Counted from the first letter of the whole stretch, positions 19,441-49,523 are shown. The stretch: 62,025 nucleotides of DNA, filler included, from 5 parts of 5 records of this genome joined end to end with filler, not necessarily neighbours in it; one strand, 5' to 3'. Notes: generated by a model not told the origin, from the sequence alone. Made by a program: numbers and translations.

Positions 19441-19512
19441 ATGAGATCGACAAATGGCCTAACATCACCACCAAAAGCAAATTTGGCTTTCCGTACCGGC
19501 ATAGTCGGCCAC
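19441..19512 (+). CDS. partial CDS truncated by the contig end, possible SLOG/YpsA-like N-terminus
   Basis: RBS GGGAGG then MRSTNGLTSPPKANLAFRTGIVGH; resembles the hRhGhxGHR start motif. Only 24 codons visible. Not in the ORF track. Confidence 0.45.
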
Positions 19513-19612
19513 NNNNNNNNNNNNNNNNNNNNNNNNNNNNNNNNNNNNNNNNNNNNTTAATTAATTAANNNNNNNNNNNNNNNNNNNNNNNNNNNNNNNN
19601 NNNNNNNNNNNN
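19513..19612. other. artificial contig spacer
   Basis: N-run + TTAATTAATTAA (stops in all six frames) + N-run. Confidence 0.98.
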
Positions 19613-25660: not shown

Positions 25661-25684
25661 ATAAAATTCTTATTGATAGCTATT

Positions 25685-28600: not shown

Positions 28601-28966
28601 ATCGCAATTGTGCATTCCAATGGTAATGCCCAACCTGTTAGCTTCTTTTAATGCCCATTTGAACATTTCATACCACTCTGCGGAATTAAAAATAACTTTT
28701 TCAACTCCTAAATTCTGCCCCGTGCCCATACCAATATTAAGTATAGTTGCCTGGCTTACTCCCTGTTTCTTCATCGACTCAAGATCTTTTGTAATGCCAT
28801 CGCGGGAGATACGCCCACCCATCCAATGCCACCAGGTATGTACAGCAACATCGCTTTTAGGTTCCTTAAAAAGTTCCTCATCAAAATCAGAATCAGTTCT
28901 TTTCGAACCACAACTGCAGATAAAAAATATTAGGAACATGAATAAGAAAGTTCTTGTATTTCTCAT
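25685..28966 (-). CDS. GH106 alpha-L-rhamnosidase-like lipoprotein with discoidin-like insertion
   Basis: Lipobox ICSC; TWWHWMGG, GITKDLESMK, HNCDGWSESGGPWITPE, GLECDKM, IDSWE, EAFT, SGIIGP. Confidence 0.88.
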   Translation of the reverse strand: MRNTRTFLFMFLIFFICSCGSKRTDSDFDEELFKEPKSDVAVHTWWHWMGGRISRDGITKDLESMKKQGVSQATILNIGMGTGQNLGVEKVIFNSAEWYEMFKWALKEANRLGITIGMHNCDGWSESGGPWITPEMSMKKFVFSKTNISNSTNKVILQKPICETDFYCDVAVIAYKKNPNGFLTESELPKVNLNGTIEGKSLVDGNPESMLEVREGHVFNISYPTKKLITKVSLLQNFKGAFYFPGPKTIEYTIKASNDGIHFKKITEVSSNKFYVTDIIDIPSTEAKYFQVEVKKIHQLRPWHHAALAELQLLSTKEEPAYNPSVFYPLEKAASARIIDIDKLYTSNSKISQDKIIEKKDIINLTGKMTSDGVLNWEKPEGNWCVIRFGYTTTGAENGPATKEGRGLECDKMDTTALNFHFSHFPQKLIDHAGTYTGNTFKFFLIDSWERGYQTWTKAMPEEFMKLRGYELFSWIPALCGETVESTEASEGFLYDFRKTIADLFELNYYNHFNTLCHKNGLELHGEVIYGDTGPFPPVDVLKTNDYMDMPMFEFWADRNEEQFVEYKPLPTPILNFPVYAANFYNKPVIGTEAFTGFAHYSESPSDLKLFGDRAFCSGINQMILHSYVHQPAEKQPGLTLGQHGSHFNRHYPSWQHSKSWTDYLARGQYILQKGVIASEILYYLGDQLPQFFENKEVESLSAAYQTIPCNYDVLTKLSVKNGKLTYSGHQEFSILVLPDKPMLEFNSLIELGRLLSQGALIYGKKPVQMFSLNARMNRGAEFKKLADEIWTGYNNDKTGENNYGKGTMIWGEPLTQTISRYNINPDFTTNQPDSLNLMYIHKTTANNDVFYVVNQKDSAYSRDCVFKVSDKSTPEIWDPITGEIKNVPFFTNEAGTVTVSIEFKPQQSLFLIFSKKEKTKLETESKPHETYVVTDFKGRVIFQPINYGEIDTIEINEFKSFTNYSDRKIKFFSGTAIYEIDFNLPTDYLRHKKQVCLSLGEFDATTEVVLNNHMLGTAWSSDNKFCVGELLKEQNHLKIILGTTVRNRIIGDLREYGELRNIWTAGPIGRFLDKDSELKPSGIIGPLQLVKN

Positions 28967-31305: not shown

Positions 31306-33417
31306 ATGGGAATTGAACAAGGACTTAATTCACGTTTAGACAAAGACAGAAAGGTTGAAACCCAACAATGGTTTAAAAAACTGATTCAACCTGACGAATA
31401 TGTTGGCGACCTGTATTCAATTAATTACGAAACTGCAAGAGTTATTATTCATGACTTCTACCGTGAAAAAGTTGGAGGGATTCCCAGTTTAAGTTTTTTA
31501 ATTGCTTCGAGGGTTGACCCAAATTCAGATGATATTGATTACAAAGAGGAAGACTCTTCTTTTATTTTACTACGAGTTATGGATTCTGCCTCATTACCCC
31601 AAGATAAAGAAGCGGAAAGAATTAGAGTTGAAACTGCACAAAGAATAAGTGGCGAAACAGAAAAACATTGGGACGATTCCGGCACAATGGATTTAAGAAC
31701 AAAAAACTTACTTGGATTTGCTGGTGTTCAATGCCGTATTATTGGGACTTTTTACCTGGAAGAGAATACAGGTAACGGTGAAGCTCCGCTTAATTTGAAA
31801 TTTGGAAGCGATATTTCAAATTATTATCCAAATCGTGGATTAAAGGTTTTCAAACCAAACGGAGCAGCACTTGAATCAATAGTAAATTACTGTGACCCTG
31901 CAAATATCCAAATAAATAATGAAAACTATAACAATACCGAAAGAGTTAAGCTCGGATTTATACGGTATGCTTCAACAAACAGAAAACACCAAAATATTGA
32001 TGATGTACCTGTTTACATATATCCGGCAGATTTATTATCACAAAAATCTGCATTATTTGGGATGACAAGGACAGGTAAATCTAATACTACAAAGATTATC
32101 GCAAAATCAGTCTTTGAATTAAGAAAAACGGAAAAACCAGAAGATAAACCTTTGAGAATTGGGCAAATCATTTTTGACCCAAATGGAGAATATGCTAATG
32201 AAAATCCACAAGACGTTGATGGAAGCAATAACCCAAATGCTTTGAAAAATGTTTGGAAGGTTCTGCCTGATACAAATAAGGAAGATGAAGTGATTACATA
32301 TGGCATTACCCCCCATCCAAATGACCCCGACAGAAATTTAATGCTTCTGAATTTCTATACAAATGAAAATTTGCAAATGGGAAAGTCCATTATTGATGGA
32401 ATTTTGAGTGAAGACCCAGCAACATACATCAAAAATTTCCTTCAAGTAGATTTTGAAGAACCAGACCAAAATGACCGAAGCGCAGTTACAAGATACAATA
32501 GGCGCATTTTGGCTTATAGGGCAATCTTGAGCCGAGCCGGATTTACTCCCCCTTCCAATATTACACCAAACACAAATAGACTGTTTAACAGAGAACTTAT
32601 TCAAGCATTAGAAAATTACGAAGGTGATAACGAAGCAGAATATCAATCAGCAGCAAGAATCTTTTCCACTCAAAGACCTAATTGGGGACAGTTAGCAAAT
32701 GCCTTTGAATCATTGGAGAAATTCATGCGCGAAAGGAATTCGGGATATTCTGATTTTGAATCAAATTATGTTAGCAGACCCAATGGTTCAGGTGAGAGGT
32801 GGGCTGATGAAAACTTTAAAAAGATTCTTGGTTTGTTTCAATATCCGAATGGAATTAGAAAAATTGGTAAAGCAGCCGAACAACATAGTCCTGATACAAG
32901 CAGGGATTATGCAGATGATATATACGAAAACCTTACACAAGGGAAACTAGTCATCATTGACCAATCAAGCGGTGAGCCTGAATTGAATAAATCGTCTGCA
33001 GAAAGAATAATGTGGCACATTTTCCGGGCAAATCAAAACCTATTCAGAAGTGGAGAGACGCCAACGGAGATATTAGTTTATGTAGAAGAAGCTCATAATA
33101 TTTTACCTGCGGGAAGCGACTTAGATTTATCGGATGTTTGGGTACGCACGGCCAAAGAAGGCTCAAAGTATCGGATTGGGATGGTGTATGCAACGCAGGA
33201 AGTCAGTAGTATTCAAAGAAATATTTTAAAAAATACTGCAAACTGGTTTATCAGCCATTTGAATAACACCGATGAAACAAAGGAGTTATGCAAATATTAT
33301 GATTTCCAAGATTTCGAGCCATCAATCAGGAGGGCACAGGATAAAGGCTTTTTGAGAGTAAAAACCTTAAGTAATTTATTTGTAATCCCTGTTCAGGTTG
33401 ACAGGTTCAGCGTTTAA
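31306..33417 (+). CDS. HerA/FtsK-superfamily ATPase (DUF87), HerA-like
   Basis: N-terminal barrel-like region; Walker A GMTRTGKS; IFDPNGEY; Walker B YVEEAH; AKEGSKY..YATQ; QDKGF. Confidence 0.88.
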   Translation: MGIEQGLNSRLDKDRKVETQQWFKKLIQPDEYVGDLYSINYETARVIIHDFYREKVGGIPSLSFLIASRVDPNSDDIDYKEEDSSFILLRVMDSASLPQDKEAERIRVETAQRISGETEKHWDDSGTMDLRTKNLLGFAGVQCRIIGTFYLEENTGNGEAPLNLKFGSDISNYYPNRGLKVFKPNGAALESIVNYCDPANIQINNENYNNTERVKLGFIRYASTNRKHQNIDDVPVYIYPADLLSQKSALFGMTRTGKSNTTKIIAKSVFELRKTEKPEDKPLRIGQIIFDPNGEYANENPQDVDGSNNPNALKNVWKVLPDTNKEDEVITYGITPHPNDPDRNLMLLNFYTNENLQMGKSIIDGILSEDPATYIKNFLQVDFEEPDQNDRSAVTRYNRRILAYRAILSRAGFTPPSNITPNTNRLFNRELIQALENYEGDNEAEYQSAARIFSTQRPNWGQLANAFESLEKFMRERNSGYSDFESNYVSRPNGSGERWADENFKKILGLFQYPNGIRKIGKAAEQHSPDTSRDYADDIYENLTQGKLVIIDQSSGEPELNKSSAERIMWHIFRANQNLFRSGETPTEILVYVEEAHNILPAGSDLDLSDVWVRTAKEGSKYRIGMVYATQEVSSIQRNILKNTANWFISHLNNTDETKELCKYYDFQDFEPSIRRAQDKGFLRVKTLSNLFVIPVQVDRFSV

Positions 33418-33428
33418 AATCATTTTTT

Positions 33429-34796
33429 ATGGGATTTGAAGGAGAATTTGCAAGTTATGAACCATTAAGGCGTTTGCTGGATAGTGATAAAGTTAAAGCA
33501 CTTGAAAGTCGTCTTAGAATAAGGAAACAAGATGAATCAGATGAACAAGATTTTGAATCATCAATAACACATAAAAAAGACTTAAAAGAAAGTCCTATTA
33601 AGCCAGACCTAGTTCTTGCAATTGATGGAAGTAATATTGCAGCCAAAGCTGAAAATGGATTCCCAGGAGCTGAATTTGGCTATATCACAATAGCATCAGT
33701 TCTCATTGACTTAAAACTAATTAAAGAGCTTGAGAAAGTAGATTTTATAGAGCCTAAAAAATTCCGCGAAACGGAAAAAGCATCGACAATTGATAGCGTA
33801 TTCCCCGGTTGCAATGTAATTATCGACACTGAAAAAGATGCTAAGGCATCACTAAGGAGGGCATTGTTCGAGGAACTAAAAAGCAACACTGTTTTCTCAG
33901 AAGGAGAAACTTTACTTGAAACTTATGAGCATCTTTTAAGGATAAAGAGAGAACACTTTTCAGATAGCCGCCCACCAAGAAGTCCGATTGAGGGTTTTGA
34001 AGGAGATATGGTTTATGGATATGGAGAGTATAAATGCCCAAAAACTGGTGAACCACTATATTCAACTGACGCTTTACGACTCCATGAATTGATGAACCCA
34101 AGCGGAAGTAATGGTGAATTGTTCGGACAAATAATGGCTACCATTGAGAAATTATGGCTTGTTCACATTTTAAGGGCATTTGAATATAAAGGCTGGTTAC
34201 CTACCCTACGTAGGGTTGCTTTTATAATGGATGGTCCACTTGCCGTTTTTAGCACTTCATCATGGCTGACTAAAGCAATAAACTATGAAATTACGAGAAT
34301 TAATGAAATTCAAAAAAAGGTCAATGGACAGGATTTATTAATTATCGGAATTGAAAAATCCGGCACATTTTACAACCATTTCATTGACATTGACACAACT
34401 AAGGACGGGATAACAGATAAGTTCCCAAAACAATCTGCTTTACTTCTGAATGATAGCTATATTAAAAGAAATATCATCTTTTCGGAAAGCACAAAACCGT
34501 ATGGTCAGGATACTTATTTTGGTAGAAAATTTTTCTATAAAACTTCTACTGGACAGAAAATTGTACCTGTAGTTGCCTATTTCAATAAACATCAGCTAAA
34601 TATGGATACCGCAAAACCGGAACAGTTTTCCAGATTAGCAGATGTGATGCATCTGCTTGACAAGTTAGTTTCAAGTAGATATCCAAATTCTGTTTCTCCA
34701 CTTGTTTCTGCTCATGCTGAAGCAGCAATTCCATTAAATTTGGGGAAAAGAATTTTTGAAGATATTGCCAGAGAAATACGAGATAAATCTGAATGA
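33429..34796 (+). CDS. NurA-like nuclease
   Basis: LAIDGS, FIMDGPL, IGIEKSG and C-terminal PLVSAH..A match the NurA motif order; directly downstream of HerA. Confidence 0.8.
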   Translation: MGFEGEFASYEPLRRLLDSDKVKALESRLRIRKQDESDEQDFESSITHKKDLKESPIKPDLVLAIDGSNIAAKAENGFPGAEFGYITIASVLIDLKLIKELEKVDFIEPKKFRETEKASTIDSVFPGCNVIIDTEKDAKASLRRALFEELKSNTVFSEGETLLETYEHLLRIKREHFSDSRPPRSPIEGFEGDMVYGYGEYKCPKTGEPLYSTDALRLHELMNPSGSNGELFGQIMATIEKLWLVHILRAFEYKGWLPTLRRVAFIMDGPLAVFSTSSWLTKAINYEITRINEIQKKVNGQDLLIIGIEKSGTFYNHFIDIDTTKDGITDKFPKQSALLLNDSYIKRNIIFSESTKPYGQDTYFGRKFFYKTSTGQKIVPVVAYFNKHQLNMDTAKPEQFSRLADVMHLLDKLVSSRYPNSVSPLVSAHAEAAIPLNLGKRIFEDIAREIRDKSE

Positions 34797-35917
34797 TAGC
34801 GATAGAAAAAATATTAAAAGGTTTTTCAACAGCCGAATCCCGCTGGGCAAGGTTCGGCCCCTATTATGCTATGTTCCCTTTAGACTTTGCTTTTGAAATT
34901 GTAAACAAATATTCAAAGGAAGGAGACTATATCATCGACCCCTTTGCAGGAAGGTGCAGCAGTATTTATGCAGGAGGTGTGTTAGGTAGAAATAGTTTAG
35001 GGATTGAGATTAACCCTGTTGGATGGTTATTTGGTACTGTAAAATTACAACCTGCTGAAAAAAGCGAAGTAATTGACCGTTTGCTTGAGATTTATTTAAA
35101 AAGAGAAGATTACAGTGGTGTAATAAAAGCAATGCCCGAGTTTTATCACATTTGTTACAGTGATGAAGTACTAAAATTTTTATTGGCAATACGGGATTTA
35201 TTGGATTGGCAGAAAAGTAATGTTGATGCAACTTTAATGTCCATTGTACTGGTTTATCTTCATGGAAAACTTGGTGAGGGTTTTTCCAATCAAATGCGTA
35301 TGACCAAATCAATGGGGATGAATTATTCGGTTGAATGGTGGAAGAAAAATGGCTTTACAAAACCACCTCAACTTAATCCTTATGAATTTATGTTGAAAAA
35401 GATTGAATGGCGCTATGCAAAAGGGAAACCGGAAGTAACAGAAAGCGCTGTTGTTTTTGGAGATAGCTCCACTGAGTTAGAAAAAATTGCAGAACGGGCT
35501 ATTCAAAATGACATAAAGTTCTCATTACTTTTTACTTCACCGCCTTATTATTCTATAACAGATTATCATGCTGACCAATGGTTACGATTATGGTTATTGG
35601 GAGGTCCTGAAAACCCACAAACATTAAAGGACAAACACAAAGGCCGTTTTATAAACAAACAAGAATACTATGAATTGCTGGATAGTGTTTTCGGACATAG
35701 TGCTAAACTAATGAAAACCCATAGCACAGTTTACGTAAGAACAGACAAACGTGAATTTACCTTTAATTCGACTGTAGAAATACTCAAAAAATATTTTCCT
35801 AATCATTCAATGCAAATTATTGAGAAACCATTAAAAAGCGATACAAAAACGCAAACAAAATTATTTGGGGATAAATCAATGAAACCCGGTGAAGTAGATT
35901 TAATCTTAACGAATTAA
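34793..35917 (+). CDS. DNA amino-methyltransferase (probably N4-cytosine)
   Basis: PYYAMFP, SAM-binding DPFAG, GIEINP, catalytic TSPPY; ATGA overlap with the NurA stop. Confidence 0.85.
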   Translation: MIAIEKILKGFSTAESRWARFGPYYAMFPLDFAFEIVNKYSKEGDYIIDPFAGRCSSIYAGGVLGRNSLGIEINPVGWLFGTVKLQPAEKSEVIDRLLEIYLKREDYSGVIKAMPEFYHICYSDEVLKFLLAIRDLLDWQKSNVDATLMSIVLVYLHGKLGEGFSNQMRMTKSMGMNYSVEWWKKNGFTKPPQLNPYEFMLKKIEWRYAKGKPEVTESAVVFGDSSTELEKIAERAIQNDIKFSLLFTSPPYYSITDYHADQWLRLWLLGGPENPQTLKDKHKGRFINKQEYYELLDSVFGHSAKLMKTHSTVYVRTDKREFTFNSTVEILKKYFPNHSMQIIEKPLKSDTKTQTKLFGDKSMKPGEVDLILTN

Positions 35918-35921
35918 ACTT

Positions 35922-36668
35922 ATGCTTGAAATAATAAACATACACAAATCATTTGGAGAACAGATAGTTCTTCAAGGAATTGATATGTCTTTTGAGCAAG
36001 GAAAAATTCATACAATTGTTGGAGGTAATGGAAGCGGAAAAACAACGCTATTTAATTTAATCACGGGTTTTTTGCGCCCAGACCAAGGTGAAATAAAATT
36101 AGAAGGGAAAAGGATAGAAAAGTATTCACCAGTCAGCATCAATAAAAAAGGAATTACCCGCACATTTCAGGATTTAAGGATAATCACCGAGGTTTCAGTC
36201 AAAGAAAATATTCTTTTAGCATTTAAAAACAATCCGGGAGAAAAAATCCTGAATTCCATTTTACCATCAAGGTTATTCAAAGACCAATATCAGAGGACTT
36301 CAAGGCAAGCAGAACAAATAATTGAGAAAGTTTCTCTGAAACCTGTGATAAACAGTTTGGCTGGTGAAATATCGTATGGTCAACAAAAGCTCTTAACTAT
36401 TGGATGCTGCCTTGCCAATAATGCTGATATATTACTCCTTGATGAACCTGTAGCGGGTATTGACAAGAATAATTATCAAAAAATATTTGAATTACTGGAA
36501 AAACTCAGGGAAGAAGGAAAAACAATTATCCAGATAGAACACAATCATGGCTTTGTTGAGAGTCTTGGTGATGATATCTGGTTTCTTCATGCCGGTAAAT
36601 CTTATTATTTTAGCGATTATCAATCGTTTATCAATGATAAAATTGTAAAAGAAACATACCTGAATTGA
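35922..36668 (+). CDS. Liv-type ABC transporter ATP-binding subunit (LivG-like)
   Basis: GGNGSGKTTLFNLITG, RTFQ, ISYGQQK, LLDEPVAG, IEH. Confidence 0.9.
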   Translation: MLEIINIHKSFGEQIVLQGIDMSFEQGKIHTIVGGNGSGKTTLFNLITGFLRPDQGEIKLEGKRIEKYSPVSINKKGITRTFQDLRIITEVSVKENILLAFKNNPGEKILNSILPSRLFKDQYQRTSRQAEQIIEKVSLKPVINSLAGEISYGQQKLLTIGCCLANNADILLLDEPVAGIDKNNYQKIFELLEKLREEGKTIIQIEHNHGFVESLGDDIWFLHAGKSYYFSDYQSFINDKIVKETYLN

Positions 36669-37315
36669 TGTTAGAAGTCAAACACATATCATCCGGTTAT
36701 GGAAAGAAGCAAGTGCTTTTTGATGTTTCGCTTACTGTGGAAAAAGGGGATGTTGTTTTGCTTACTGGTGGGAATGGTTCAGGAAAATCAACTTTATTGA
36801 AAAGTATTTATAATCTTCTACCTTGCTGGAATGGCGAAATCATTTTTGAAGAAAAAAAACTAAATGGTTTAAAACCATCAGATTTGATTCAAATAGGAAT
36901 TGTTTACATTCCACAAAAAGACTTTTATTTTGAAAATCTTTCCGTTGATGAAAATTTAAAAATTTCAGGTAATGTACTCAATAAAGATATCATAAAACAA
37001 AGAATTGAAGAGGTTTATGAATTAACAGGATTGGGAAAATTCAAGAAACGTAAGCCATTCAATTTAAGTGGTGGCGAAAGAAAAATTCTTGCATTTGGCA
37101 TGGGATTAATGCACAAACCACAACTCCTTTTATTTGATGAACCGTTTGCTGGTGTTGACGCCAAAAACTCTGAGATACTTAACCGTCTATTCAAGGAAAC
37201 AGTTATTAAACCAGAAAATATGATAATTCTTGTTGAGCATAAAGATGATGCGAAACAATTATATAATCGGAAAATTAAAATGGAATTAGGAACCCTAAAA
37301 AATTCAATAATATGA
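36668..37315 (+). CDS. Liv-type ABC transporter ATP-binding subunit (LivF-like)
   Basis: SGYGKKQVL, GGNGSGKST, LSGGERK, FDEPFAG, VEH. ATG at 36668 (TTG at 36665). Confidence 0.9.
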   Translation: MLEVKHISSGYGKKQVLFDVSLTVEKGDVVLLTGGNGSGKSTLLKSIYNLLPCWNGEIIFEEKKLNGLKPSDLIQIGIVYIPQKDFYFENLSVDENLKISGNVLNKDIIKQRIEEVYELTGLGKFKKRKPFNLSGGERKILAFGMGLMHKPQLLLFDEPFAGVDAKNSEILNRLFKETVIKPENMIILVEHKDDAKQLYNRKIKMELGTLKNSII

Positions 37316-38406
37316 GAAAGTTTGTTGTAATCTTTATTTCATTGTTATTCTTTTTTGGTTGCGTTAACCAACAAAAGAAAAAAAACCAATTTAAAATTGG
37401 CGTAATATCACCCTTAACTGGTGAGGTAGCCAGTTGGGGACAAATTCAAAAAAATGCAACGGATTTAGCAGTTGGTAAAATCAATTCTTCTGGTGGTATT
37501 AATGGAAAAAAAGTAACAGTAATATATGAGGATAGTAAAGCCTCACCTAAAGAAGGAGTGGCAGCTTTCCGAAAGTTATATGAGTTGGATTCATGTGATA
37601 TAGTGATTGGTGTTCCAGCTAGCAATGTTACCTTGGCAATTGCTCCTGTGGCTAATAAGATGGAGAGAGTTTTATTAACTTCCGGTTCAACCGCAACAGA
37701 GGTAGGTAATGCTGGGCCTTATGTGTTTCGAATTATGCCATCTGATGAGGAACAATCCAAAGTTATGAGTGAATGGGCTCAAGAACTTGGTTACAAAAAA
37801 ATAGCTGTGATTTACGTACAAAATTCATGGGGAAAAGGATTAGCTGATAAGTTTATTGAAGACTTTAAAGAAAAGGTTGGTGAAATAGTTGCTAGTATCG
37901 GAACAAAACAGGAAGCTACAGACTTTAAGACGCAACTGTTGAAAATAAAAGGTACAAATGCCGAGGCGATATATGCTCCTTTGTATACCAGAAATGCAGG
38001 ATTAATGATACGACAAGCAAGAGAAATTGGCATTGACTTACAAATTTTGGGCGCTGATGTTTATAACACACCTGACTTGATTGAAGCAGGAGGCAAAGCG
38101 GTAAATGGAGTTTTATATACTCAGTTCAACCAAGGAGAAGGTAAATTATATGAAAGTTTTGCAGAAGAGTATGAAAAGGCATTTGGTAATGCACCGGAAA
38201 CATATGCAGGTTATTGCTATGATGCAGTGATGATTGCTGCAGAAGCTTTAAAAAAAGACAAAATGAGTACACGAGAAGCTCTATTGAATATAGTTAATTA
38301 TAAGGGAATTACCGGGATATCAAATTTTGATGGAAAAACGAATGCAACTGGTAAAACCTTTGAAAAGTGGACAGTAGAAAAAGGCAAACATGTAAAATAT
38401 GAATAG
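37312..38406 (+). CDS. LivJ/K-type substrate-binding lipoprotein
   Basis: Lipobox FFGC; KIGVISPLTG, GGINGKKV..ED, YVFRIMPSD, DFKTQL, YDAV. Confidence 0.9.
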   Translation: MRKFVVIFISLLFFFGCVNQQKKKNQFKIGVISPLTGEVASWGQIQKNATDLAVGKINSSGGINGKKVTVIYEDSKASPKEGVAAFRKLYELDSCDIVIGVPASNVTLAIAPVANKMERVLLTSGSTATEVGNAGPYVFRIMPSDEEQSKVMSEWAQELGYKKIAVIYVQNSWGKGLADKFIEDFKEKVGEIVASIGTKQEATDFKTQLLKIKGTNAEAIYAPLYTRNAGLMIRQAREIGIDLQILGADVYNTPDLIEAGGKAVNGVLYTQFNQGEGKLYESFAEEYEKAFGNAPETYAGYCYDAVMIAAEALKKDKMSTREALLNIVNYKGITGISNFDGKTNATGKTFEKWTVEKGKHVKYE

Positions 38407-39682
38407 GAATTATAAAGCCATAATATCATTAATTCTCAGTTTTTTGGCAGTGTTTTGGTACTTTAATGTTGGTGCAGAACCTACTATAATAGATTTTGAA
38501 AAAATCGAAATCAAAATTTCATTAGTAATTGCTATTTTGTCTTTTTTGATTGCTTTACACTTTTTCTCTATTAAAGTAGTTGGATTTCGGGACTTTGAAG
38601 TATTTGAAAAAATTAGATATTTGATTACACTCAACTTTTACAATAAGAAAAACAAATATAAATCTAGGGTTTATACTCAAAGGGCTGTATGTCCTGAAAT
38701 TGAATTCAAATTCAAAGAAAAAAGAAAAATAGATAATAACACCATTTTTTTATTTAGAAGTAATGAGGAAATTCTAAAGAATGATACTTATAGCTTCATA
38801 GATTTAGAGAAAAGAGATTATCAAAAATATACAAAATTGTTAAAACGTAAAAGCAGGTATAAAGTAATTACATATAAAGATATACATATTTGGACACTCA
38901 GTTTTTATGATGACTTACTATATTATATTAACGATTTTAAGAAGTTTAAACATGAACCCTGTTTGTTAAATCGTTTATTCGTTTTAGACGACAATATATC
39001 TAATACCGATTTTACGAATTTTGTCAAGTTATTAAGAGATAATACAAAATTAGATTTAAAGCAAATATTAAATAATATATTAAAAAAGGATAAAAATGGA
39101 AGAAAGGCTTTAGATTTCAACGGTTTAGTCAACAGAGTTATTGAACCATCTAAAGTAAAACAGGAATATAAGATTAAATTACTCTTTTTATATTTTGCAC
39201 TATTTGTTCAAAATCGCTTAGGAATAAATTGTTATGTAATTTCAAAAGAAAAATTTGAAAAACAGACTGCTATAAGTTCAATGAATGATTTTTGGGAGTT
39301 TTCGGGCCTTGGAGTATTTGATGACCACATGACAGCTCTTGTTTATAAAGGACCTTCGAGGATTTATAATGAAAATACAGAAAAAATCAAAAACGATGAA
39401 TTAATCATAAAATATAAATTTCAGTTTAAAAACAATCAGGACATAAATGATTTATTTGACGATAATAGTTTTGATGAAAAAAACATTAAAGCACACAGTG
39501 GTCTAAATTCTGAAAACCAAGACTTACTTATAAAAATGAGTAAAGATGAAGCTTTTCTTAGAATAGTTGAGTTTTATGCTGAATTAATAAACTATCTATC
39601 ATTAAACAAATTGATTAGAAAATTTAAGTTTAAGAAAAAGAAGAATTTGAAAACTTTAATAGAAAATATTAATCATGGTTGA
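38399..39682 (+). CDS. hypothetical protein with two N-terminal TM segments
   Basis: 427-aa ORF overlapping both neighbours; two hydrophobic helices then a Lys/Asn-rich soluble region; visibly very AT-rich. Confidence 0.75.
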   Translation: MNRNYKAIISLILSFLAVFWYFNVGAEPTIIDFEKIEIKISLVIAILSFLIALHFFSIKVVGFRDFEVFEKIRYLITLNFYNKKNKYKSRVYTQRAVCPEIEFKFKEKRKIDNNTIFLFRSNEEILKNDTYSFIDLEKRDYQKYTKLLKRKSRYKVITYKDIHIWTLSFYDDLLYYINDFKKFKHEPCLLNRLFVLDDNISNTDFTNFVKLLRDNTKLDLKQILNNILKKDKNGRKALDFNGLVNRVIEPSKVKQEYKIKLLFLYFALFVQNRLGINCYVISKEKFEKQTAISSMNDFWEFSGLGVFDDHMTALVYKGPSRIYNENTEKIKNDELIIKYKFQFKNNQDINDLFDDNSFDEKNIKAHSGLNSENQDLLIKMSKDEAFLRIVEFYAELINYLSLNKLIRKFKFKKKKNLKTLIENINHG

Positions 39683-41705
39683 TATATATTTCCCACCCCA
39701 CTTTTCATATTATCAACCATACATTGCTTTGCCTTCACTCAAAGCTTTTTTGGAGGGCAATAATATTCACTGCAATATTCATGATTTAAACATTCGTTCA
39801 TTTCACTACTTAATTAATCCCAATTATATAAAAAAATGCTTCAAAAAAATAGAAGAACAAATTTCAGCTTTTGAATCAAAATCAGAATTAGATGAAAAGG
39901 AATTTAGTTATTATGAACAATTAATTCAAGGCCGATTAGCCTATCCGTTAGTGGCTGAATTTATTGAAAAGGCAATCACTTTTTTTCAGGATGAAGAGCA
40001 AATTTTAGATTTTAAAAAATACCAATTATTTGAACGGGTTGTTGACAATGCGTTTAAAATTATTTCAACAGCGTTTTACCCTACATTAATTTCACTCTCT
40101 GATTTTTCTATGGAGTATAGCTTTGAATCATCCATTGAAATTGAAGCAGCTATTGCAGATGAGGAAGAAAATCCATTTATCGGTTATTTTCAAAACTATT
40201 TAAAAGAAAATGAGCTTAAGCAAGATGATAAATTATTGGGAATATCAATTACTGCCACAAGTCAAATGATACCTGCGTTTACGTTGGCAAAAATATTACG
40301 TAAAAAATATCCCGAAAAAAAGATTGTATTGGGCGGAGTAATTTCAAATCATCTTGCAGTAAAATTTACAAGAAGCCAATCTCTTAATAAATACTTTGAT
40401 TTTTTAATAAGCGGTGAGGGTGAAACAGCTCTTTTAGGATTAACAAAACACTTAGAAAATGGATTTGAGATTGAACAAATTCCAAATTTGTACTATAAAT
40501 CAAACGGGCAATGGCGTTCAAACAATAAATTAATCGTTGAACAGGTTGAAAAAATCCCTACTCCTAATTACGATGGTTTTCCTCTTGATGCATACTTAGC
40601 TCCAAAACCGATTCTATCCATTGAACCTGGCAGAGGCTGTTATTATCGAAAATGTACTTTTTGCAACCAACATTCAATTCATAAAGGACATTTTAACATA
40701 AAGAAGGTTGATTCAATATTCAATCAAATTAGAGTTTTAAAGAAAAAATACAATAGTAATTATTTTAACCTATCCAATGAAGGTATTCCAATTCTTCATT
40801 TAAAAAAACTTGCTCTCAAATTAATTGAGGAAAAAACAGATATTTACTGGTATGCTGGGGCACGGTTATCAGATAAACTGGATGTAGAGACATGCCAGAC
40901 ACTATACAAATCAGGATGCCGTAAACTTTTATTTGGTTTAGAATCCGGTAATCAAAGAATACTGGATTTAATGAAAAAAGATGTTAATCTTGATAAAGTA
41001 CCGTACATATTTAATAATTGTAAAAAAGCAGGTATTGATATTGTTACTTATTTAATGATAGGCTTCCCGACAGAAAAAGAACATGAAATAAATGACACCA
41101 CACAATTCATAATTAAAAACTTGCCCAATATTCTTCCTGAGGGTTTCGTTTTCTATATCAGTGTGTTTCAAGCCATGATTGATTCTCCAATATTGGAATT
41201 ATTGCCTGAATACGGTTACGAGCTAATAGAAAAGGATGGCTATGACTTAATTTATATTTATACCCATAAAAAAACAAAAGATGATTCCAAGTATACAAGA
41301 GTTTTTTATGAGGATAAAATCAAGGAAATGAATTCCTTAATTTATGAAAAGTTACCACCTCAGTCTTTACCTCTGAATATTTCCCATTATATGGCTTATA
41401 AGGCGCATAAACACAGTGTTAAAGCAGATGATAAAAATAATGTTGATTTAGAAAGTACTAGAATAAAAACAAGCCAATGGATATCATTTGGAGATGCAAA
41501 ATTTATTTGCTCAAATGGCGATAAATTAGTTTATTCATTATTGACTAATAAAAGCTATCTTATAAACGCTGACGGCAAGGAAATTCTTGATTATCTTCAA
41601 CGTCCATGCGATATTAAAGAAATAAAAAAAGAATTTAATGAGGTAGTGTCAATTGATGATTATCTTAAATTTGTAATTAATAACAAAATATGTATTCAAG
41701 TATGA
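39675..41705 (+). CDS. cobalamin-binding radical SAM enzyme with C-terminal RRE/PqqD-like domain
   Basis: PYIALPSL, GISIT..Q..IVLGG, GEGE (B12-binding domain); RGCYYRKCTFC cluster motif; GLESG, YLMIGFPTE; tail LVYSLLTNKSYLINADGKEILDYL..IKEI..L.FVINNKI. Confidence 0.88.
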   Translation: MVDIYFPPHFSYYQPYIALPSLKAFLEGNNIHCNIHDLNIRSFHYLINPNYIKKCFKKIEEQISAFESKSELDEKEFSYYEQLIQGRLAYPLVAEFIEKAITFFQDEEQILDFKKYQLFERVVDNAFKIISTAFYPTLISLSDFSMEYSFESSIEIEAAIADEEENPFIGYFQNYLKENELKQDDKLLGISITATSQMIPAFTLAKILRKKYPEKKIVLGGVISNHLAVKFTRSQSLNKYFDFLISGEGETALLGLTKHLENGFEIEQIPNLYYKSNGQWRSNNKLIVEQVEKIPTPNYDGFPLDAYLAPKPILSIEPGRGCYYRKCTFCNQHSIHKGHFNIKKVDSIFNQIRVLKKKYNSNYFNLSNEGIPILHLKKLALKLIEEKTDIYWYAGARLSDKLDVETCQTLYKSGCRKLLFGLESGNQRILDLMKKDVNLDKVPYIFNNCKKAGIDIVTYLMIGFPTEKEHEINDTTQFIIKNLPNILPEGFVFYISVFQAMIDSPILELLPEYGYELIEKDGYDLIYIYTHKKTKDDSKYTRVFYEDKIKEMNSLIYEKLPPQSLPLNISHYMAYKAHKHSVKADDKNNVDLESTRIKTSQWISFGDAKFICSNGDKLVYSLLTNKSYLINADGKEILDYLQRPCDIKEIKKEFNEVVSIDDYLKFVINNKICIQV

Positions 41706-41821
41706 AAAACAAAGATGTAAAAAAACCAATCATTAGGGAATATGAATTCAAAAACATTCATAGTGCTCTTTATGATATTAAAAAGAAACACCCGGTTGTG
41801 ACTAAAGGTAGCAGAGGGTAA
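41702..41821 (+). CDS. 39-aa small ORF, candidate RiPP precursor peptide
   Basis: MKNKDVKKPIIREYEFKNIHSALYDIKKKHPVVTKGSRG*. ATGA overlap with the radical SAM stop; ends 5 nt before the LivH start. Below the ORF-track size cutoff. Confidence 0.7.
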   Translation: MKNKDVKKPIIREYEFKNIHSALYDIKKKHPVVTKGSRG

Positions 41822-41826: not shown

Positions 41827-42705
41827 ATGTGGGTTCAATTATTCATAAATATTACTCTTTCGTTTTCGATTTACCTTTTAATATCATACTCCTTTTCACT
41901 GATATATAGCACAGAAGGTTTTTTTAATATTTCGCAAGCTGCAGTAATTACTTTAGGAGCCTATTTAACTTTCTTTTTAAAGGTTCAAATTGGTTTATCT
42001 TTAGCAACATCAATTATCATAGCTATAATTTTATCATCGGTAATTGGGCTTTTTATTGAGGTTGGTGTTTATAAATTCTTTCGAAAAAAGAAAAGTCATT
42101 CTTTCGTCTTATTGCTTTCTTCATTAGGGATATACATAATTTTACAGAATCTTATCGCGCTATTTTGGGGCGACAGGAATCTATCAATAAGGGATAACTC
42201 TTCGGAAATTGGCAACAAAATAGCTGGCGGATATATTACAGATATTCAGTTAATAACCATTGTAATTAGTATCATAGTCATTTCCTTAGCCGTTATCTTC
42301 ATGAACAAATCAAAGCTCGGTAAAAAAATAAGAGCAATTTCATCGAATAACCAATTAGCCATTAATTTTGGTATTAACGTGAATAAAGTTATCGCAATAA
42401 CAGTATTAATTAGTTCATCTATTGCATCATTAGTTGGTATTTTAGTTGCACTTGATACTGATATGGTTCCTACAATAGGTTTCGACCTACTCGTATTTGG
42501 TATTGTAGCAATGATAATTGGCGGTATTGGAAGCACTTGGGGTTTAATTATTGGTTCATTTGTTCTCGCCAGTGCTCAACATTTTGGAGCATATTTTATA
42601 GATAGCAATTGGATGGATGCAATTACATACATTATTTTAATCCTGTTTTTGATATGGAAACCATTGGGTTTTAGTGGCAAACAACTAAAAAAAGTTGAAA
42701 TATAA
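41827..42705 (+). CDS. Liv-type ABC transporter permease (LivH-like)
   Basis: SLIY..GFFNISQA, SKLGKKIRAISSN..A..GINV, IIGGIGS..G, KPLGFSG. Confidence 0.9.
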   Translation: MWVQLFINITLSFSIYLLISYSFSLIYSTEGFFNISQAAVITLGAYLTFFLKVQIGLSLATSIIIAIILSSVIGLFIEVGVYKFFRKKKSHSFVLLLSSLGIYIILQNLIALFWGDRNLSIRDNSSEIGNKIAGGYITDIQLITIVISIIVISLAVIFMNKSKLGKKIRAISSNNQLAINFGINVNKVIAITVLISSSIASLVGILVALDTDMVPTIGFDLLVFGIVAMIIGGIGSTWGLIIGSFVLASAQHFGAYFIDSNWMDAITYIILILFLIWKPLGFSGKQLKKVEI

Positions 42706-43586
42706 TGGAATACATCCTCCACATAGTCATAATGATTTTACTCTACGTAATGCTTTCCCAAAGCCTTACAATTACGTCTGGCTATTCCGGCTTGATTTCA
42801 CTGGCTCATGCAGGATTTTATGGAATTGGTGCGTACGCTTCAGCAATTCTATCTGTAAATTTCAGTATGCCATTTCTTTTAACGCTTCCAGTTGCAATGG
42901 TTGTTAGTGGCGTTATCGCTGTATTTGTATCCACTATAGCTTTACGTACGGTAGATGATTATTTCATAATAATCACTTTAGGAGTACAGGTAGTTGCATT
43001 CTCTATTATGAACAACTGGATGGATTTAACTAATGGCCCTCTGGGTATTCCGGGTATTCCGGCAATTACAATTTTGGATTTTGAGTTTTCTAGCAAAATT
43101 TCATTTTTGCTACTTACCTTATTTTTAACAGCTATTGTGTTTTTAATTTTAAGAAACATTACCAAATCACCTTTTGGCAGGATTTTAATTGCATTGAGCG
43201 AGGACGAAATTTTCACCAAAAGTCTTGGAAAAAAAGTCTACCAGGCAAAAATTATCAGTTTTACAATTGGAGGCATGTTTGCTGCAATTCCGGGTGTTCT
43301 TTATGCGCATTACATCAGCTACATTGACCCTACAAGTTTCACCATAGATGAATCCATCTTTATTTTATCAATAGTAATTATAGGAGGCATGAGATATTTA
43401 TGGGGGTCAGCTATTGCAGCAGCAGTACTGGTTATTTTACCGGAAGCATTAAGATTTTTAGGTATGCCAAGTAACATTGCTGCAAACATAAGACAGATAA
43501 TTTATGGATTGGCACTCGTAATAATGATGTTTAAATTCAGCAAAGGCTTTATATCAAAAAACTATGTTGGACAGGAAAACAAATAG
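42705..43586 (+). CDS. Liv-type ABC transporter permease (LivM-like)
   Basis: GYSGLISLAHAGFYGIGAY, DYFIIITLG, TNGPLGI, SPFGR..A..EDE, YIDPTSF, LPEALR. Confidence 0.9.
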   Translation: MEYILHIVIMILLYVMLSQSLTITSGYSGLISLAHAGFYGIGAYASAILSVNFSMPFLLTLPVAMVVSGVIAVFVSTIALRTVDDYFIIITLGVQVVAFSIMNNWMDLTNGPLGIPGIPAITILDFEFSSKISFLLLTLFLTAIVFLILRNITKSPFGRILIALSEDEIFTKSLGKKVYQAKIISFTIGGMFAAIPGVLYAHYISYIDPTSFTIDESIFILSIVIIGGMRYLWGSAIAAAVLVILPEALRFLGMPSNIAANIRQIIYGLALVIMMFKFSKGFISKNYVGQENK

Positions 43587-44037: not shown

Positions 44038-44439
44038 ATGGAATACTTCGGTTCTTGTTTATGTAAAGGAATTAAATTTAAAGTTATAGGTGACTTTGAG
44101 CGTTTTTATTTATGCCATTGCAGATATTGTAGGAAAGACACAGGGTCTGCTCATGCGGCAAATTTGTTTTCCACTACAGCTAAACTTGAATGGATAAAAA
44201 CGGAAACTGAAATTAAAATATTTCAACCACATAAGAGTAATCATGTGAAAGCCTTTTGTACAAATTGTGGTTCAGCTTTGCCCAATTTACAAATGGACGG
44301 TAAACTTTTAGTAGTTCCAGCAGGATGTTTAGATACAAAATTAGAAAAACGACCTAATGCACATATTTTTATCTCAAACAAAGCAAGTTGGGATGATTCG
44401 TTGGAAGAAATAAATAAATTTGGACGCTTCCCAGAATAA
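44038..44439 (+). CDS. GFA/CENP-V family zinc-binding protein (probable gene cassette)
   Basis: GSCLC, CHCRYCRK, FCTNCGS, HIF..KASW; lies between two attC-like sites. Confidence 0.92.
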   Translation: MEYFGSCLCKGIKFKVIGDFERFYLCHCRYCRKDTGSAHAANLFSTTAKLEWIKTETEIKIFQPHKSNHVKAFCTNCGSALPNLQMDGKLLVVPAGCLDTKLEKRPNAHIFISNKASWDDSLEEINKFGRFPE

Positions 44440-44694: not shown

Positions 44695-45558
44695 ATGATT
44701 AAAATTAACCTTACAACCCTTTTTTTAGTAATTGCTATGTGTCTTGCTGGCCAGGGCACAGACTTTAAACCCATTTCGATCAAAGAAGGAGTGGAGCTGG
44801 CTAAATCGCAGGATAAAAACCTTTTTTTGTACTTTGGTACCACGCATTGTCCTTATTCACAAACTATGTTTACTTATTTATTAAACGATGAAACAATTGG
44901 TGATTTTTTTAATAAAAATTATATCAATATTGGGTATGGCGATTCAACCACCCAGGACAGGGTGAAATGGTACTATAGTGATACACGCAAGCAGTTTCAT
45001 AGATTAGAGACTGAATTGGAAGCCGTGTTGTGTAACTATTTTGTTTGGCCTAACTATTTTTTCATCAACAAACAAGGAAAAATTTCTTTCATGAATACTG
45101 GTATGCGTTCACCTGAGCAAATTCTGGAATATGCCAAAATGGTTAATAATGGTGAAAGTAAATTGCCTTTGTGGTTCAGAATTAAATTTAATAACCGGGT
45201 GTATCCTAAAAATAAGAAGACATTTGGAATGCTCACCCATTGCCTCAATGCCTATGTGAAAATGGATGTACCCGAGAATATTGATTATAATAATGATAGT
45301 ACTTTCCATTTGACAGATTTTACATTTGAGGAGCATAATCTTACGAATGCTCAAAAGGATATTGAGGCTTCACTACAATACAACGAGTATTACTTTAATT
45401 GCTTTTTGGCTTCGGTAATCTATTACAAGTCTGAACAATTGGAAAAAGCCCAACGATATGCCCAAAAAGGGTTGAATGATTTTCCGAAACACTGGTTTGA
45501 TTCAAGAAAGCTACCCGATCAATTGATGCGTGAGATATTGGAATATGAAACGGATTAA
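44695..45558 (+). CDS. exported thioredoxin-fold protein (CxxS) with helical C-terminus
   Basis: Signal peptide; ELAKSQDKNLFLYFGTTHCPYS; WPNYFFINKQG. Confidence 0.7.
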   Translation: MIKINLTTLFLVIAMCLAGQGTDFKPISIKEGVELAKSQDKNLFLYFGTTHCPYSQTMFTYLLNDETIGDFFNKNYINIGYGDSTTQDRVKWYYSDTRKQFHRLETELEAVLCNYFVWPNYFFINKQGKISFMNTGMRSPEQILEYAKMVNNGESKLPLWFRIKFNNRVYPKNKKTFGMLTHCLNAYVKMDVPENIDYNNDSTFHLTDFTFEEHNLTNAQKDIEASLQYNEYYFNCFLASVIYYKSEQLEKAQRYAQKGLNDFPKHWFDSRKLPDQLMREILEYETD

Positions 45559-49071: not shown

Positions 49072-49171
49072 NNNNNNNNNNNNNNNNNNNNNNNNNNNNN
49101 NNNNNNNNNNNNNNNTTAATTAATTAANNNNNNNNNNNNNNNNNNNNNNNNNNNNNNNNNNNNNNNNNNNN
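49072..49171. other. artificial contig spacer
   Basis: N-run + TTAATTAATTAA + N-run. Confidence 0.98.
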
Positions 49172-49523
49172 GCGAGGGGAGTCGAACCCCTGTCCGAAAC
49201 CAGTACCCTACTGTTTTCTACGAGTATAGTTATTCTGTAAAATTTCCTACATAGTTACGACAAAATAACAAGCATTAACTATAAGTAGCTTCATAAATCT
49301 TAGGTTGTGGCAAAGCTTACACAACCGCAACTAACATTTTTTAGTCACCCTATCGCCTTATGTTAGTCTAGGACAATATGGGTGGCAGGCTTAATTAAGC
49401 AGCTGCTAACGCAAAATTATTGTTATTGTTTGCATTTAAATTGTTTGTCTATTTTAACGTAGCTAGACATCTACGACCCGCTTACAATAGTCCCCCGACC
49501 CCGTCGAAAGCCATTACGCCCCC
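49172..49523 (-). ncRNA. ssrA: tmRNA, 3' end truncated by the contig edge; tag peptide ANNNNNFALAAA
   Basis: 5' GGGGGCGTAATGGCTTTCGACGGGG; 3' T-arm GGGGTTCGACTCCCCTCGC; tag reading frame 49433-49395; downstream of smpB. Confidence 0.95.

Follow-up and report, generated by a model that had tools for sequence, protein, structure and literature searches.

The window analysed here (the whole stretch of 62,025 nucleotides, filler included) contains a tight operon on the plus strand in which the genes of a binding-protein-dependent ABC importer flank three further genes. The first gene encodes a livG-like ABC ATPase (35922-36668; Pfam ABC_tran, E-value: 6.9e-32). It is followed by a livF-like ABC ATPase gene (36665-37315; ABC_tran, E-value: 1.3e-29), which overlaps livG by 4 nt, and by a gene for a livK-like substrate-binding lipoprotein (37312-38406; Peripla_BP_6, E-value: 1e-62). 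Next are the genes for a 427-aa protein, here called Protein X (38399-39682; 8-nt overlaps with both livK and the gene that follows), for a 676-aa radical SAM enzyme of class-B-like type, with a B12 domain and an RRE domain at its C-terminus (39675-41705; assigned from Pfam, NCBIfam, AF2, Foldseek and VIA-align) and for a 39-aa precursor-like peptide (41702-41821, stop codon included). A livH-like permease gene (41827-42705; BPD_transp_2, E-value: 3.9e-38) begins 5 nt past the peptide stop codon, and a livM-like permease gene (42705-43586; BPD_transp_2, E-value: 4.1e-41) overlaps livH by 1 nt. From livG to livM, all junctions are overlaps of 1-8 nt or 5-nt gaps.

A Peripla_BP_6 protein, two BPD_transp_2 permeases and two ABC ATPases encoded in a single operon identify the flanking genes as those of a HAAT/LIV-type ABC importer. 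The livG-like protein is similar to the UrtD/LivG-like models of NCBIfam at scores below their equivalog cut-offs, and none of the LIV proteins reaches an NCBIfam equivalog cut-off. The N-terminus of the livK product ends in ...FFGC, and the presence of this lipoprotein indicates that the transporter is an importer and not an exporter. Like LIV-I/HAAT importers (LivJ/K-HMGF and UrtABCDE), the system has all five components with the expected Pfam domains, and the best PDB relatives of LivK are branched-chain amino-acid binding proteins (4gnr, E-value: 1.4e-36). Unlike those systems, the window operon has three extra genes inserted between livK and livH, an arrangement that a literature search did not find described. 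The preliminary description of this locus did not use the LIV genes in its reading.

Protein X is a putative membrane-anchored protein, judging by two N-terminal hydrophobic segments recognized by eye in its sequence. It has no match in Pfam or NCBIfam, no homolog at an E-value of 1 or below and no ESM Atlas match above 0.88. It shows a weak match (E-value: 0.021) to the upstream protein of L084, a related locus with an enzyme 38% identical to that of the window; this upstream protein has sub-threshold TPR matches and is in turn similar to a 704-aa protein of a second related locus, L082 (E-value: 6e-10). Between Protein X and the L082 protein directly, no conservation is detectable.

The enzyme has the conserved domain Radical_SAM (Pfam; 63.5 bits against a cut-off of 29.5, E-value: 3.5e-17) at residues 316-479. 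Its cluster-binding cysteine triad, C322-x4-C327-x2-C330 (40638-40664), is conserved without exception in all 70 aligned relatives, and the CX4CX2C spacing is a variant of the canonical radical SAM [4Fe-4S] cluster motif, CX3CX2C. Residues ~1-262 (39675-40460) are predicted from AF2 secondary structure and VIA matches to form a Rossmann-type cobalamin-binding domain, interrupted in the AF2 model by a helical insert of ~140 residues (38-178). Although the Pfam B12-binding model scores below threshold on the window enzyme itself (19.6 bits against a cut-off of 32.1), it matches 69 of the 70 relatives at E-values of 0.01 or lower. The AF2 model (pLDDT 94.3) was matched by Foldseek to OxsB, MgmA, TsrM, AprD4, CysS and TokK (E-values: 3e-15 to 2e-12) and gave VIA-align Z values of 22-18; residues 1-261/286 of the model aligned to the B12-binding domains of AerR (Z 10.9), MetH (1bmt, Z 9.5) and MtaC (Z 9.2). 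On this model the enzyme has a class B radical SAM fold, and cobalamin use is predicted. Fold alone is no proof of B12 use because AprD4, a top structural match, is a radical SAM diol-dehydratase; according to PDB titles and NCBIfam names, neither OxsB nor AprD4 is a methyltransferase.

Among NCBIfam models, the enzyme is most similar to the PhpK family of small-molecule P-methyltransferases (TIGR04479; 129.9 bits against a cut-off of 600), followed by ApyD (NF050148; 114.8 bits, cut-off 750) and the RiPP maturation radical SAM C-methyltransferases (TIGR03975; 112.7 bits, cut-off 281.85). None of these three cut-offs is reached, and no curated family model covers this enzyme.

The C-terminal tail of the enzyme (residues 591-676; 41445-41702) is RRE/PqqD-like, as judged by VIA-align, hhalign and the occurrence of Pfam PqqD in relatives. 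In the full-length AF2 model, where its pLDDT is 85-97, strands at 596-599, 603-606, 617-621 and 626-630 are followed by helices at 632-640, 647-653 and 660-669; modelled by itself, the tail is poor (pLDDT 51). It aligns to MibB (5ehk_B 191-285; Z 9.9, rmsd 1.7 A, 76 aligned) and TbtB (6ec8_A 251-352; Z 9.6, rmsd 2.2 A). An hhalign comparison of 13 tails from the enzyme's own clade with 23 other tails gave a probability of 94.4% (E-value: 9e-8), both sets having been cut from the 70-member alignment, in which 12 members are PqqD-positive (best E-value: 5.4e-7); an earlier comparison of only 5 with 5 tails was weak (probability 3.1%, E-value: 0.014). The window tail itself has no match to Pfam PqqD (PF05402) even at an E-value of 10, whereas two of five clade tails do (best E-value: 3.7e-4), and one tail also matches Lant_dehydr_N (E-value: 0.0013). 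In silico, then, the tail has an RRE fold. It has the winged-helix-like, strands-then-three-helices arrangement of RRE/PqqD domains, including the leader-binding regions of MibB and TbtB, but it is too diverged for the Pfam model and additionally carries a hairpin at its N-terminus (596-606) and a short strand at its end (673-675). The B12 domain, the cluster motif and the RRE-like segment of strands then helices had all been proposed in the preliminary description, and the fold, the relatives and the alignments above uphold each of them.

The start codon of the small ORF and the stop codon of the enzyme gene overlap as ATGA, and the ORF occupies 116 of the 121 nt between the enzyme gene and livH. 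A 43-aa version starting at an in-frame upstream ATG (41690) was rejected because homologous peptides begin at the position of the 39-aa form. The peptide contains KPII at residues 8-11. A putative leader motif, P-I-I-R-E-Y-E-F (residues 9-16; 41726-41749), was recognized by alignment and corresponds to the family pattern P-x-I-x-E-[YD]-x-[FL], its leading proline being leucine in one of seven aligned peptides. Nearer the C-terminus lies a conserved core, K-H-P-V-V-T-K-G-S-R (residues 29-38; 41786-41815), the presumed modification site; the K, H, P, G and R of its pattern, K-H-P-x4-G-x-R, are invariant in all seven. Cysteine and tryptophan are absent from the entire peptide. Neither motif has a match in curated families (Pfam, NCBIfam), and in a six-frame translation of the window the two occur together just once.

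Small ORFs with both motifs overlap or abut the enzyme stop codon in three metagenome loci, L081, L082 and L083, whose enzymes share 40-42% identity with that of the window. The conserved small ORF thus adjoins the enzyme gene in four of four loci of this clade, window counted, while L084 has a variant, degenerate HP-containing ORF. In a set of 160 fetched loci, only L081-L083 have a short ORF with the core motif beside the enzyme gene. The invariant residues are encoded by varying synonymous codons (CAC/CAT, CCG/CCA, GGT/GGA, AGA/AGG/CGC). GAGGAGG-like Shine-Dalgarno sites are present 6-8 nt upstream of the small ORF in L081, L082 and L083; no such site was found upstream of the window ORF. 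A word-indexed search of 5.8 billion proteins returned six peptide clusters, and an exhaustive profile search of 1.84 billion representatives returned five true family members. The sixth match of the profile search was a 926-aa repeat protein unrelated to the family. One peptide (P0125) is a one-residue variant of the window peptide, found elsewhere by gene callers. The N-terminus is Lys/Arg-rich in every member, and the stretch after the core block is between 1 and 25 residues long. A frame that stays open for 40 codons is by itself weak evidence, because shuffling this AT-rich region leaves 3.1% of 40-codon windows open; the ORF stands above chance because it is conserved across loci. By this conservation, the 39-aa ORF is a real gene, with its translation predicted. 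The earlier account of a 39-aa ORF nearly filling the gap to livH, with an ATGA overlap, a KPII motif near its start and a core lacking Cys and Trp, holds, as does its expectation of a similar peptide beside homologous enzymes. Its proposal of a C-terminal core, HPVVTKGSRG, fits the invariant block, but the block need not be C-terminal, since in two of the six family peptides further residues follow it, 13 in the L083 peptide and 25 in P0130.

Co-folding of the peptide with the enzyme gave ipSAE values of 0.66, 0.65 and 0.68, against 0.01 for the best control; 51 of 78 solved complexes pass the mark used for this scoring, against 2 of 108 mismatched pairs. Peptides lie outside the validated cases of the method, and supplied alignments were not used. 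The runs had at least 48% of contacts in common, and the partner pLDDT of 46-49 leaves the peptide fold uncertain. Peptide residues 6-19, which include the first motif, are predicted to contact enzyme residues 626-631, 633-637 and 654-672 (the last strand and the third helix of the tail), and residues 78-85 of the B12-domain insert also touch the peptide. As in RRE/PqqD domains, the peptide is predicted to lie as an added strand beside the last RRE strand, packed on helix 3, which is the canonical RRE mode; the contacts from the B12-domain insert are not a feature of those domains. The core (residues 20-39) is not confidently placed by the co-fold, which does not put it near any active site. 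The pass may reflect likeness to solved complexes, since RRE-leader complexes are in the PDB. The modelling supports the prediction that the tail binds the leader motif of the peptide, as suggested previously.

The module of Protein X, enzyme and peptide lies between livK and livH in four of four loci with visible neighbours. LIV genes flank it in the window, L081, L082 and L083 and at none of the 157 other loci; the synteny evidence consists of four loci only. The peptide gene is directly upstream of livH in each, at a distance of 5 to ~100 nt. LivK of the window is 56% identical to that of L082 (tblastn), and the enzymes of the same pair are 40% identical.

The 39-aa product is likely to be a substrate of the B12-domain radical SAM enzyme encoded next to it, bound by the RRE, modified in its core and linked to the importer. 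The proposed model is as follows. The RRE tail and part of the helical insert in the B12 domain would grip P-x-I-x-E-[YD]-x-[FL], the leader motif adding a strand beside the last RRE strand and packing on the third helix. This grip would tether the K-H-P-x4-G-x-R block, 16-19 residues downstream, such that the block could reach the [4Fe-4S]/SAM/cobalamin site and undergo radical chemistry there. The likeliest reaction would be a cobalamin-dependent C-methylation at a single His, Pro, Arg or Lys among the invariant residues, methylation being a prior expectation; a cross-link or other rearrangement of the core block is possible. That the core is modified, by what chemistry, and that it is tied to the importer are inferences. 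The three-gene module appears to be inherited together with a LIV/HAAT-type amino-acid importer, always between livK and livH, which makes it most likely that the peptide, once modified, or a piece of it acts together with this importer. Its role would be that of a ligand taken up, or of a modified small partner of the transporter, rather than of a free-standing antibiotic. More specifically, we tentatively suggest that the enzyme modifies K-H-P-x4-G-x-R of a small basic peptide tied to the importer, which could serve either as the cognate ligand of LivK, itself unusually conserved (as a peptide or amino-acid-like fragment), or as a regulatory subunit. If so, RiPP-type chemistry would serve nutrient uptake or its control and not antibiosis, and the locus would represent a precursor family not seen before and perhaps a modified residue that is likewise new.

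A possible but doubtful alternative is that the modified peptide is not a natural product at all but a small basic intracellular protein that serves the LIV importer as accessory subunit or as regulator, in parallel with radical SAM modification of protein subunits rather than with RiPP biosynthesis. The constant position of the peptide gene upstream of livH in a tightly coupled operon is consistent with this, as are the basic N-termini, the variable stretch after the core (unlike a trimmed product) and the structural relative MgmA, whose PDB title describes modification of a protein subunit. The conserved module also has no recognizable protease, exporter or second tailoring enzyme in Pfam or NCBIfam, in keeping with the earlier statement that no protease gene is visible. 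However, an RRE that binds an N-terminal leader-like motif is what typifies the recognition of RiPP precursors, the peptide lacks a membrane segment, and the literature search found no precedent for such a subunit.

It is rather unlikely that the product is a classical secreted RiPP (an antimicrobial or signal) with leader removal and export by Protein X or by proteins encoded elsewhere, the LIV genes being neighbours for an unrelated reason or re-importing the product. The precursor plus radical-SAM/RRE layout is as expected of such a system, Protein X reads as membrane-anchored, its L082 counterpart has sub-threshold TPR matches (best E-value: 7e-5), and one relative with an upstream small ORF (L001, described below) has no LIV genes. 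Against this, the LivK lipoprotein marks an importer, the conserved genes encode no peptidase or exporter domain, the alignment has no conserved cleavage motif between leader and core, and the LIV association is found at every locus of the four with visible neighbours.

More improbable still is a small-molecule substrate (e.g., a LIV-imported amino acid), with the peptide merely a regulatory or scaffolding binder of the tail. PhpK is the best NCBIfam match, though far below its cut-off; PDB titles indicate small-molecule or carrier-bound substrates for OxsB, AprD4, TokK and CysS; about half of the wider enzyme family is tail-less; and the operon encodes an amino-acid-type binding protein. For a mere binder, however, the second invariant block, away from the predicted tail-binding part, is hard to explain, and the two peptide-modifying families, ApyD and TIGR03975, score almost as high as PhpK. 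The very improbable reading of the ORF as a chance open frame or untranslated spacer, with some other role for the tail, would accord with the shuffling result and the lack of a Shine-Dalgarno site in the window, but it is contradicted by the motif alignment and by protein-level conservation with synonymous codon changes between loci of ~30% and ~50% GC, as well as by the constant spacing of the two motifs, the Shine-Dalgarno sites at three homologous loci and independent gene calls in public assemblies.

We return to the preferred reading, in which the peptide is the substrate of the enzyme. The precursor-maturase pair of the preliminary description is supported in silico by the conserved adjacent peptide, the modelled RRE fold and the co-folding prediction, and a conserved tiny gene, an RRE-bearing enzyme and a constant importer operon together point to a probable new system of peptide modification, one of the radical-SAM/RRE precursor-maturase kind, with the modification predicted. 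The literature search found no description of this enzyme-peptide system. In common with the B12 radical SAM RiPP pairs (ApyD, TIGR03975 and PbsB), it combines a B12-type domain and a radical SAM core with a short adjoining precursor gene, and its similarity to ApyD and TIGR03975 covers enzyme residues ~180-480. It differs from these pairs in scoring far below the ApyD and TIGR03975 cut-offs, in having the RRE fused to the enzyme C-terminus, the helical insert in the B12 domain, the CX4CX2C cluster motif and precursor motifs outside curated families, and in having no protease and no additional tailoring enzyme. Methylation is not the sole activity of B12-radical SAM enzymes: PbsB of biphenomycin-like peptides is reported (PMC12257519) to form a C-C cross-link and not to methylate, and to need a separate RRE protein.

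The PQQ (PqqA/D/E) and mycofactocin (MftA/B/C) systems are also similar in that a short peptide, conserved in a block close to its C-terminus, is paired with a PqqD-like binder and a radical SAM enzyme. The products of these pathways are used by the cell and not secreted as antibiotics, their enzymes are SPASM-type and not B12-type, and their clusters encode proteases and oxidases. The window module has neither; its partners are an ABC importer and a putative membrane protein.

Wider relatives of the enzyme include tail-less homologs of 585-600 aa from anammox bacteria and Nitrospina and tailed 719-aa homologs from Methanoperedens. Across the B12 and radical SAM domains these are 31-37% identical to the window enzyme, and they share its invariant cysteine triad, but they have no adjacent LIV genes or K-H-P-x4-G-x-R peptide. 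The tails of the Methanoperedens homologs are Pfam PqqD-positive. One Methanoperedens locus (L040) has different neighbours, and conserved small zinc-ribbon-like ORFs are found on the opposite strand in three of five Methanoperedens loci. The tailed relative L001 is more distant; a 35-aa ORF with a similar acidic P-E-V-I-E motif lies immediately upstream of its enzyme gene.

The radical SAM gene lies within a single, tightly packed plus-strand operon that runs from livG to livM. The genes, in order, are livG (35922-36668), livF (36665-37315), livK (37312-38406), the gene for protein X, a predicted membrane protein (38399-39682), the radical SAM gene (39675-41705), the 39-aa ORF (41702-41821), livH (41827-42705) and livM (42705-43586), all on the plus strand. 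Neighboring genes overlap by 1-8 nt at every junction except that between the small ORF and livH, where there is a 5-nt gap, and the small ORF begins with an ATGA that spans the stop codon of the enzyme. No riboswitch was found near the operon in an Rfam scan of the window, the sole match being a tmRNA gene (49171-49523, minus strand; RF00023, 142.9 bits) that ARAGORN missed. Promoter and terminator sites predicted by scanning are no commoner than in shuffled sequences.

The enzyme (676 aa) has the Pfam domain Radical_SAM (E-value: 3.5e-17) and a match to a B12-binding domain that falls below threshold. Its best NCBIfam matches are to the PhpK family (129.9 bits), ApyD (114.8 bits) and the RiPP C-methyltransferase TIGR03975 (112.7 bits). 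Because each of these scores is far below its cut-off, the enzyme is placed outside every curated family tested. An AF2 model built from an alignment of 70 relatives is confident (pLDDT 94.3), and its neighbors in Foldseek and VIA-align are OxsB, AprD4, MgmA, TsrM, TokK and CysS (E-values to 3e-15; Z 22-18). All but AprD4, which is named a diol-dehydratase, are solved class B enzymes. Over the first ~260 residues of the window enzyme there are also matches to stand-alone cobalamin-binding domains (VIA-align, Z 9-11), and in the AF2 model the B12 domain is split by a helical insert of ~140 residues (38-178). The CX4CX2C spacing recorded in the preliminary description, a variant of the cluster motif, is found at C322/C327/C330, and these cysteines are kept in all 70 relatives.

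The C-terminal segment of the enzyme (residues 591-676) had been described as strands followed by helices and as RRE-like. The first point holds for this tail, and the second is borne out by PqqD matches among relatives, profile alignment, structural superposition and co-folding. The window enzyme's own tail has no Pfam PqqD match; such matches are found in two of the five close-clade tails and in 12 of the 70 relatives, and a homolog of the Methanoperedens type (P0025) scores over the gathering threshold. One tail also touches the Pfam domain Lant_dehydr_N. When 13 clade tails are aligned by hhalign with 23 other tails, the probability is 94.4% (E-value: 9e-8, 70 columns); a smaller alignment of 5 against 5 tails is weak (probability 3.1%). 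In VIA-align, residues 591-676 of the full-length model superpose on MibB 191-285 (Z 9.9, rmsd 1.7 Å, 76 residues) and on TbtB 251-352 (Z 9.6), which we take to be the leader-binding regions of those dehydratases. A PDB profile search with the tail sequence returned nothing meaningful and the tail modelled in isolation is poor (pLDDT 51); the fold assignment is that of the full-length model. Computation shows the enzyme tail to have an RRE fold.

Open frames of 40 codons occur in 3.1% of windows in shuffles of the surrounding 30% GC DNA, and because such a frame is not rare, the small ORF had to be compared across loci. Among 5.8 billion proteins, the nearest enzymes are one at 66% identity and approximately ten at 38-44% identity, and four metagenome loci (L081-L084) were fetched for close enzymes. 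As would be expected of a precursor gene, a similar small ORF does accompany the homologous enzymes: in L081, L082 and L083 (enzymes 40-42% identical), an ORF of 54-63 aa with an upstream GAGGAGG-like ribosome-binding site overlaps or abuts the enzyme stop. These three peptides and that of the window have two blocks in common, P-x-I-x-E-[YD]-x-[FL] and, 16-19 residues later, I/K-K-H-P-x4-G-x-R. The K, H, P, G and R of the second block are invariant though synonymous codons differ among the loci compared. In L084 (enzyme 38% identical), a 45-aa ORF in the same position retains just H-P and the terminal R. The two motifs occur together once in the window. This comparison of loci shows, computationally, that the peptide gene is genuine and is inherited together with the enzyme gene.

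The peptide family is rare, with seven clusters recovered by two profile searches combined: six from a word-indexed collection and five true members from an exhaustive search of 1.84 billion representatives. A sixth match in the exhaustive search is an unrelated repeat protein. Among the matches are a peptide that differs from that of the window at one residue, gene-called in another assembly, and a 76-aa member carrying both motifs. Neither Pfam nor NCBIfam has a family for the peptide, and the precursor family is covered by no curated model. The KPII reported near the start of the window peptide is present at residues 8-11, and the peptide does lack Cys and Trp. The suggested core, a C-terminal HPVVTKGSRG, coincides with the second conserved block, but this block lies near rather than strictly at the C-terminus, being followed by 1-25 variable residues.

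When the full enzyme was co-folded with the 39-aa peptide, the leader motif was docked on the tail with ipSAE values of 0.66, 0.65 and 0.68; the highest-scoring of three controls gave 0.01. Of 78 solved complexes, 51 attain the ipSAE mark used, as do 2 of 108 mismatched pairs. Agreement of contacts between runs is at least 48%, with a partner pLDDT of at least 46. The confident interface consists of peptide residues 6-19 (that is, the first conserved motif), which contact the last tail strand (626-631), helix 1 (633-637), helix 3 (654-672) and the B12-domain insert (78-85) of the enzyme. Placement on the last strand and helices of the tail is the canonical RRE binding mode. Core residues 20-39 are not placed in the co-fold. 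Because RRE-leader complexes have already been solved, this result indicates likeness to known complexes and is not proof of binding. The leader motif is thus predicted to dock on the tail, and the B12-domain insert is predicted to help hold it.

Among 160 fetched loci, genes of the LIV system (a LivGFKHM-type ABC amino-acid importer) adjoin the enzyme gene only in L081, L082 and L083. In these loci and in the window, the module of protein X, enzyme and peptide is found between livK and livH, a synteny that rests on four loci. The position of livG and livF varies: they are ahead of livK in the window and behind livM in L082. Between the window and L082, the LivK proteins share 56% identity, which exceeds the values for the enzyme (40%) and for the permeases (35-45%). 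Both LivK proteins have N-termini that read as lipoprotein-like and have branched-chain amino-acid binders as their closest solved relatives, and for these reasons the LIV system looks like an importer. Each locus encodes a membrane-anchored protein upstream of the enzyme, of 427 aa in the window and of 704 aa, with below-threshold TPR matches, in L082. The L082 and L084 proteins are related (E-value: 6e-10); protein X is marginally similar at best to its L084 counterpart (E-value: 0.021) and shows no BLASTP similarity to the 704-aa protein. Protein X has no Pfam or NCBIfam family, ESM Atlas scores of 0.88 at most, and no homologs at E ≤ 1 in a search whose candidate list may have been filled by low-complexity words. 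The conserved gene set contains no protease, as the preliminary description had remarked, and no exporter.

The following mechanism is proposed. The RRE tail would dock the leader motif, and the K-H-P-x4-G-x-R block would then reach the active site, where it would be modified. Based on the nearest named NCBIfam families, cobalamin-type methylation is taken as the prior expectation for the reaction. The top structural matches of the enzyme include non-methylases, and PbsB, a B12-radical SAM enzyme, is described as a cross-linking enzyme (PMC12257519). Because the pair is conserved together with an importer and a membrane protein and not with a protease or exporter, the modified product would serve the transporter, as a ligand or a modified partner. 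We think that it works with the transporter and not as a classical secreted antibiotic, which is the weakest step of the model.

In its workings the system would be like radical-SAM/RRE precursor-maturase pairs, which are a main source of new peptide chemistry; the window enzyme misses the membership score of every curated family tested. Its features are the uncurated precursor family, an enzyme far below all NCBIfam cut-offs, the variant CX4CX2C and the large B12-domain insert. The module is unusual in lying within the operon of an amino-acid importer. Among the titles and abstracts listed by full-text literature searches, none describes a B12-radical SAM/RRE fusion paired with this peptide, and none a LIV-embedded module. 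The system is compact (one enzyme, one 39-aa peptide, two clear motifs), and the importer placement provides a direct handle on function because LivK can be screened for binding of the core peptide in its modified and unmodified forms.

Wider relatives differ in their surroundings. Among the matches listed for GTDB representatives, the best relatives are 31-35% identical and are mostly tail-less (anammox bacteria, Nitrospina), together with tailed proteins of Methanoperedens. A phylum-wide search around one genome, G001 (E ≤ 1e-80), matched 1 of 206 genomes, namely G001 itself. Neither LIV genes nor the motif peptide was found at the fetched loci of these relatives outside the clade, and no clear precursor is present at five Methanoperedens loci. 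At three of these five, where homologs have a PqqD-positive tail, a conserved 58-62-aa zinc-ribbon-like protein is encoded downstream on the opposite strand (L040 8194-8373, L034 8184-8360 and L039 5313-5501, all minus strand). In another locus, L001, a 35-aa ORF (5789-5896, plus strand) precedes a tailed 746-aa enzyme of 33% identity (5989-8229) by ~90 nt and contains an acidic P-E-V-I-E-V-E-D-L stretch resembling the window leader motif. This locus has a sigma-54-type activator-like gene upstream and lacks LIV genes. The ORF may represent a different precursor family of the same enzyme superfamily.

Several loci carry additional genes. L082 alone has further genes between livH and livM (9363-9982, plus strand), one for a DUF5678 protein and one for an aspartyl protease of the retropepsin-like kind (Asp_protease_2, 26.2 bits; cut-off 24.3); they lie outside the conserved module. 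In L082 (5723-5947) and L081 (599-814), the gene for the large membrane protein is separated from that of the enzyme by an Ala/Lys/Glu-rich ORF of 71-74 aa on the plus strand, which has no counterpart in the window; the ORF of L082 has many weak coiled-coil family matches. In L084, an exact duplication of a ~0.6 kb block, which contains small plus-strand ORFs of 82 and 86 aa, lies downstream of the enzyme (3491-4054 and 4474-5037), where other loci have LIV genes.

In the window, a defense-like trio lies directly upstream of livG (31306-35917, plus strand), encoding a HerA-like ATPase (DUF87, E-value: 8.6e-13), a NurA nuclease (E-value: 1.3e-29) and a DNA methylase-domain protein; the trio stops 4 nt short of livG. 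Downstream of livM, after a gap of ~450 nt, are genes for a GFA-family protein (44038-44439, plus strand; E-value: 2.2e-24) and a thioredoxin-like protein (44695-45558, plus strand). A search of the window for tRNA genes found none. GC content is ~0.44-0.52 in the first 18 kb and ~0.28-0.37 in the remainder (1-20000 versus 20000-62025), a shift that could reflect horizontal acquisition of a block or a join made in assembly. Two neighboring GH106 alpha-L-rhamnosidase paralogs (955 and 1093 aa) are encoded at 22793-28966 (minus strand), adjoining a beta-helix protein (29128-31014).
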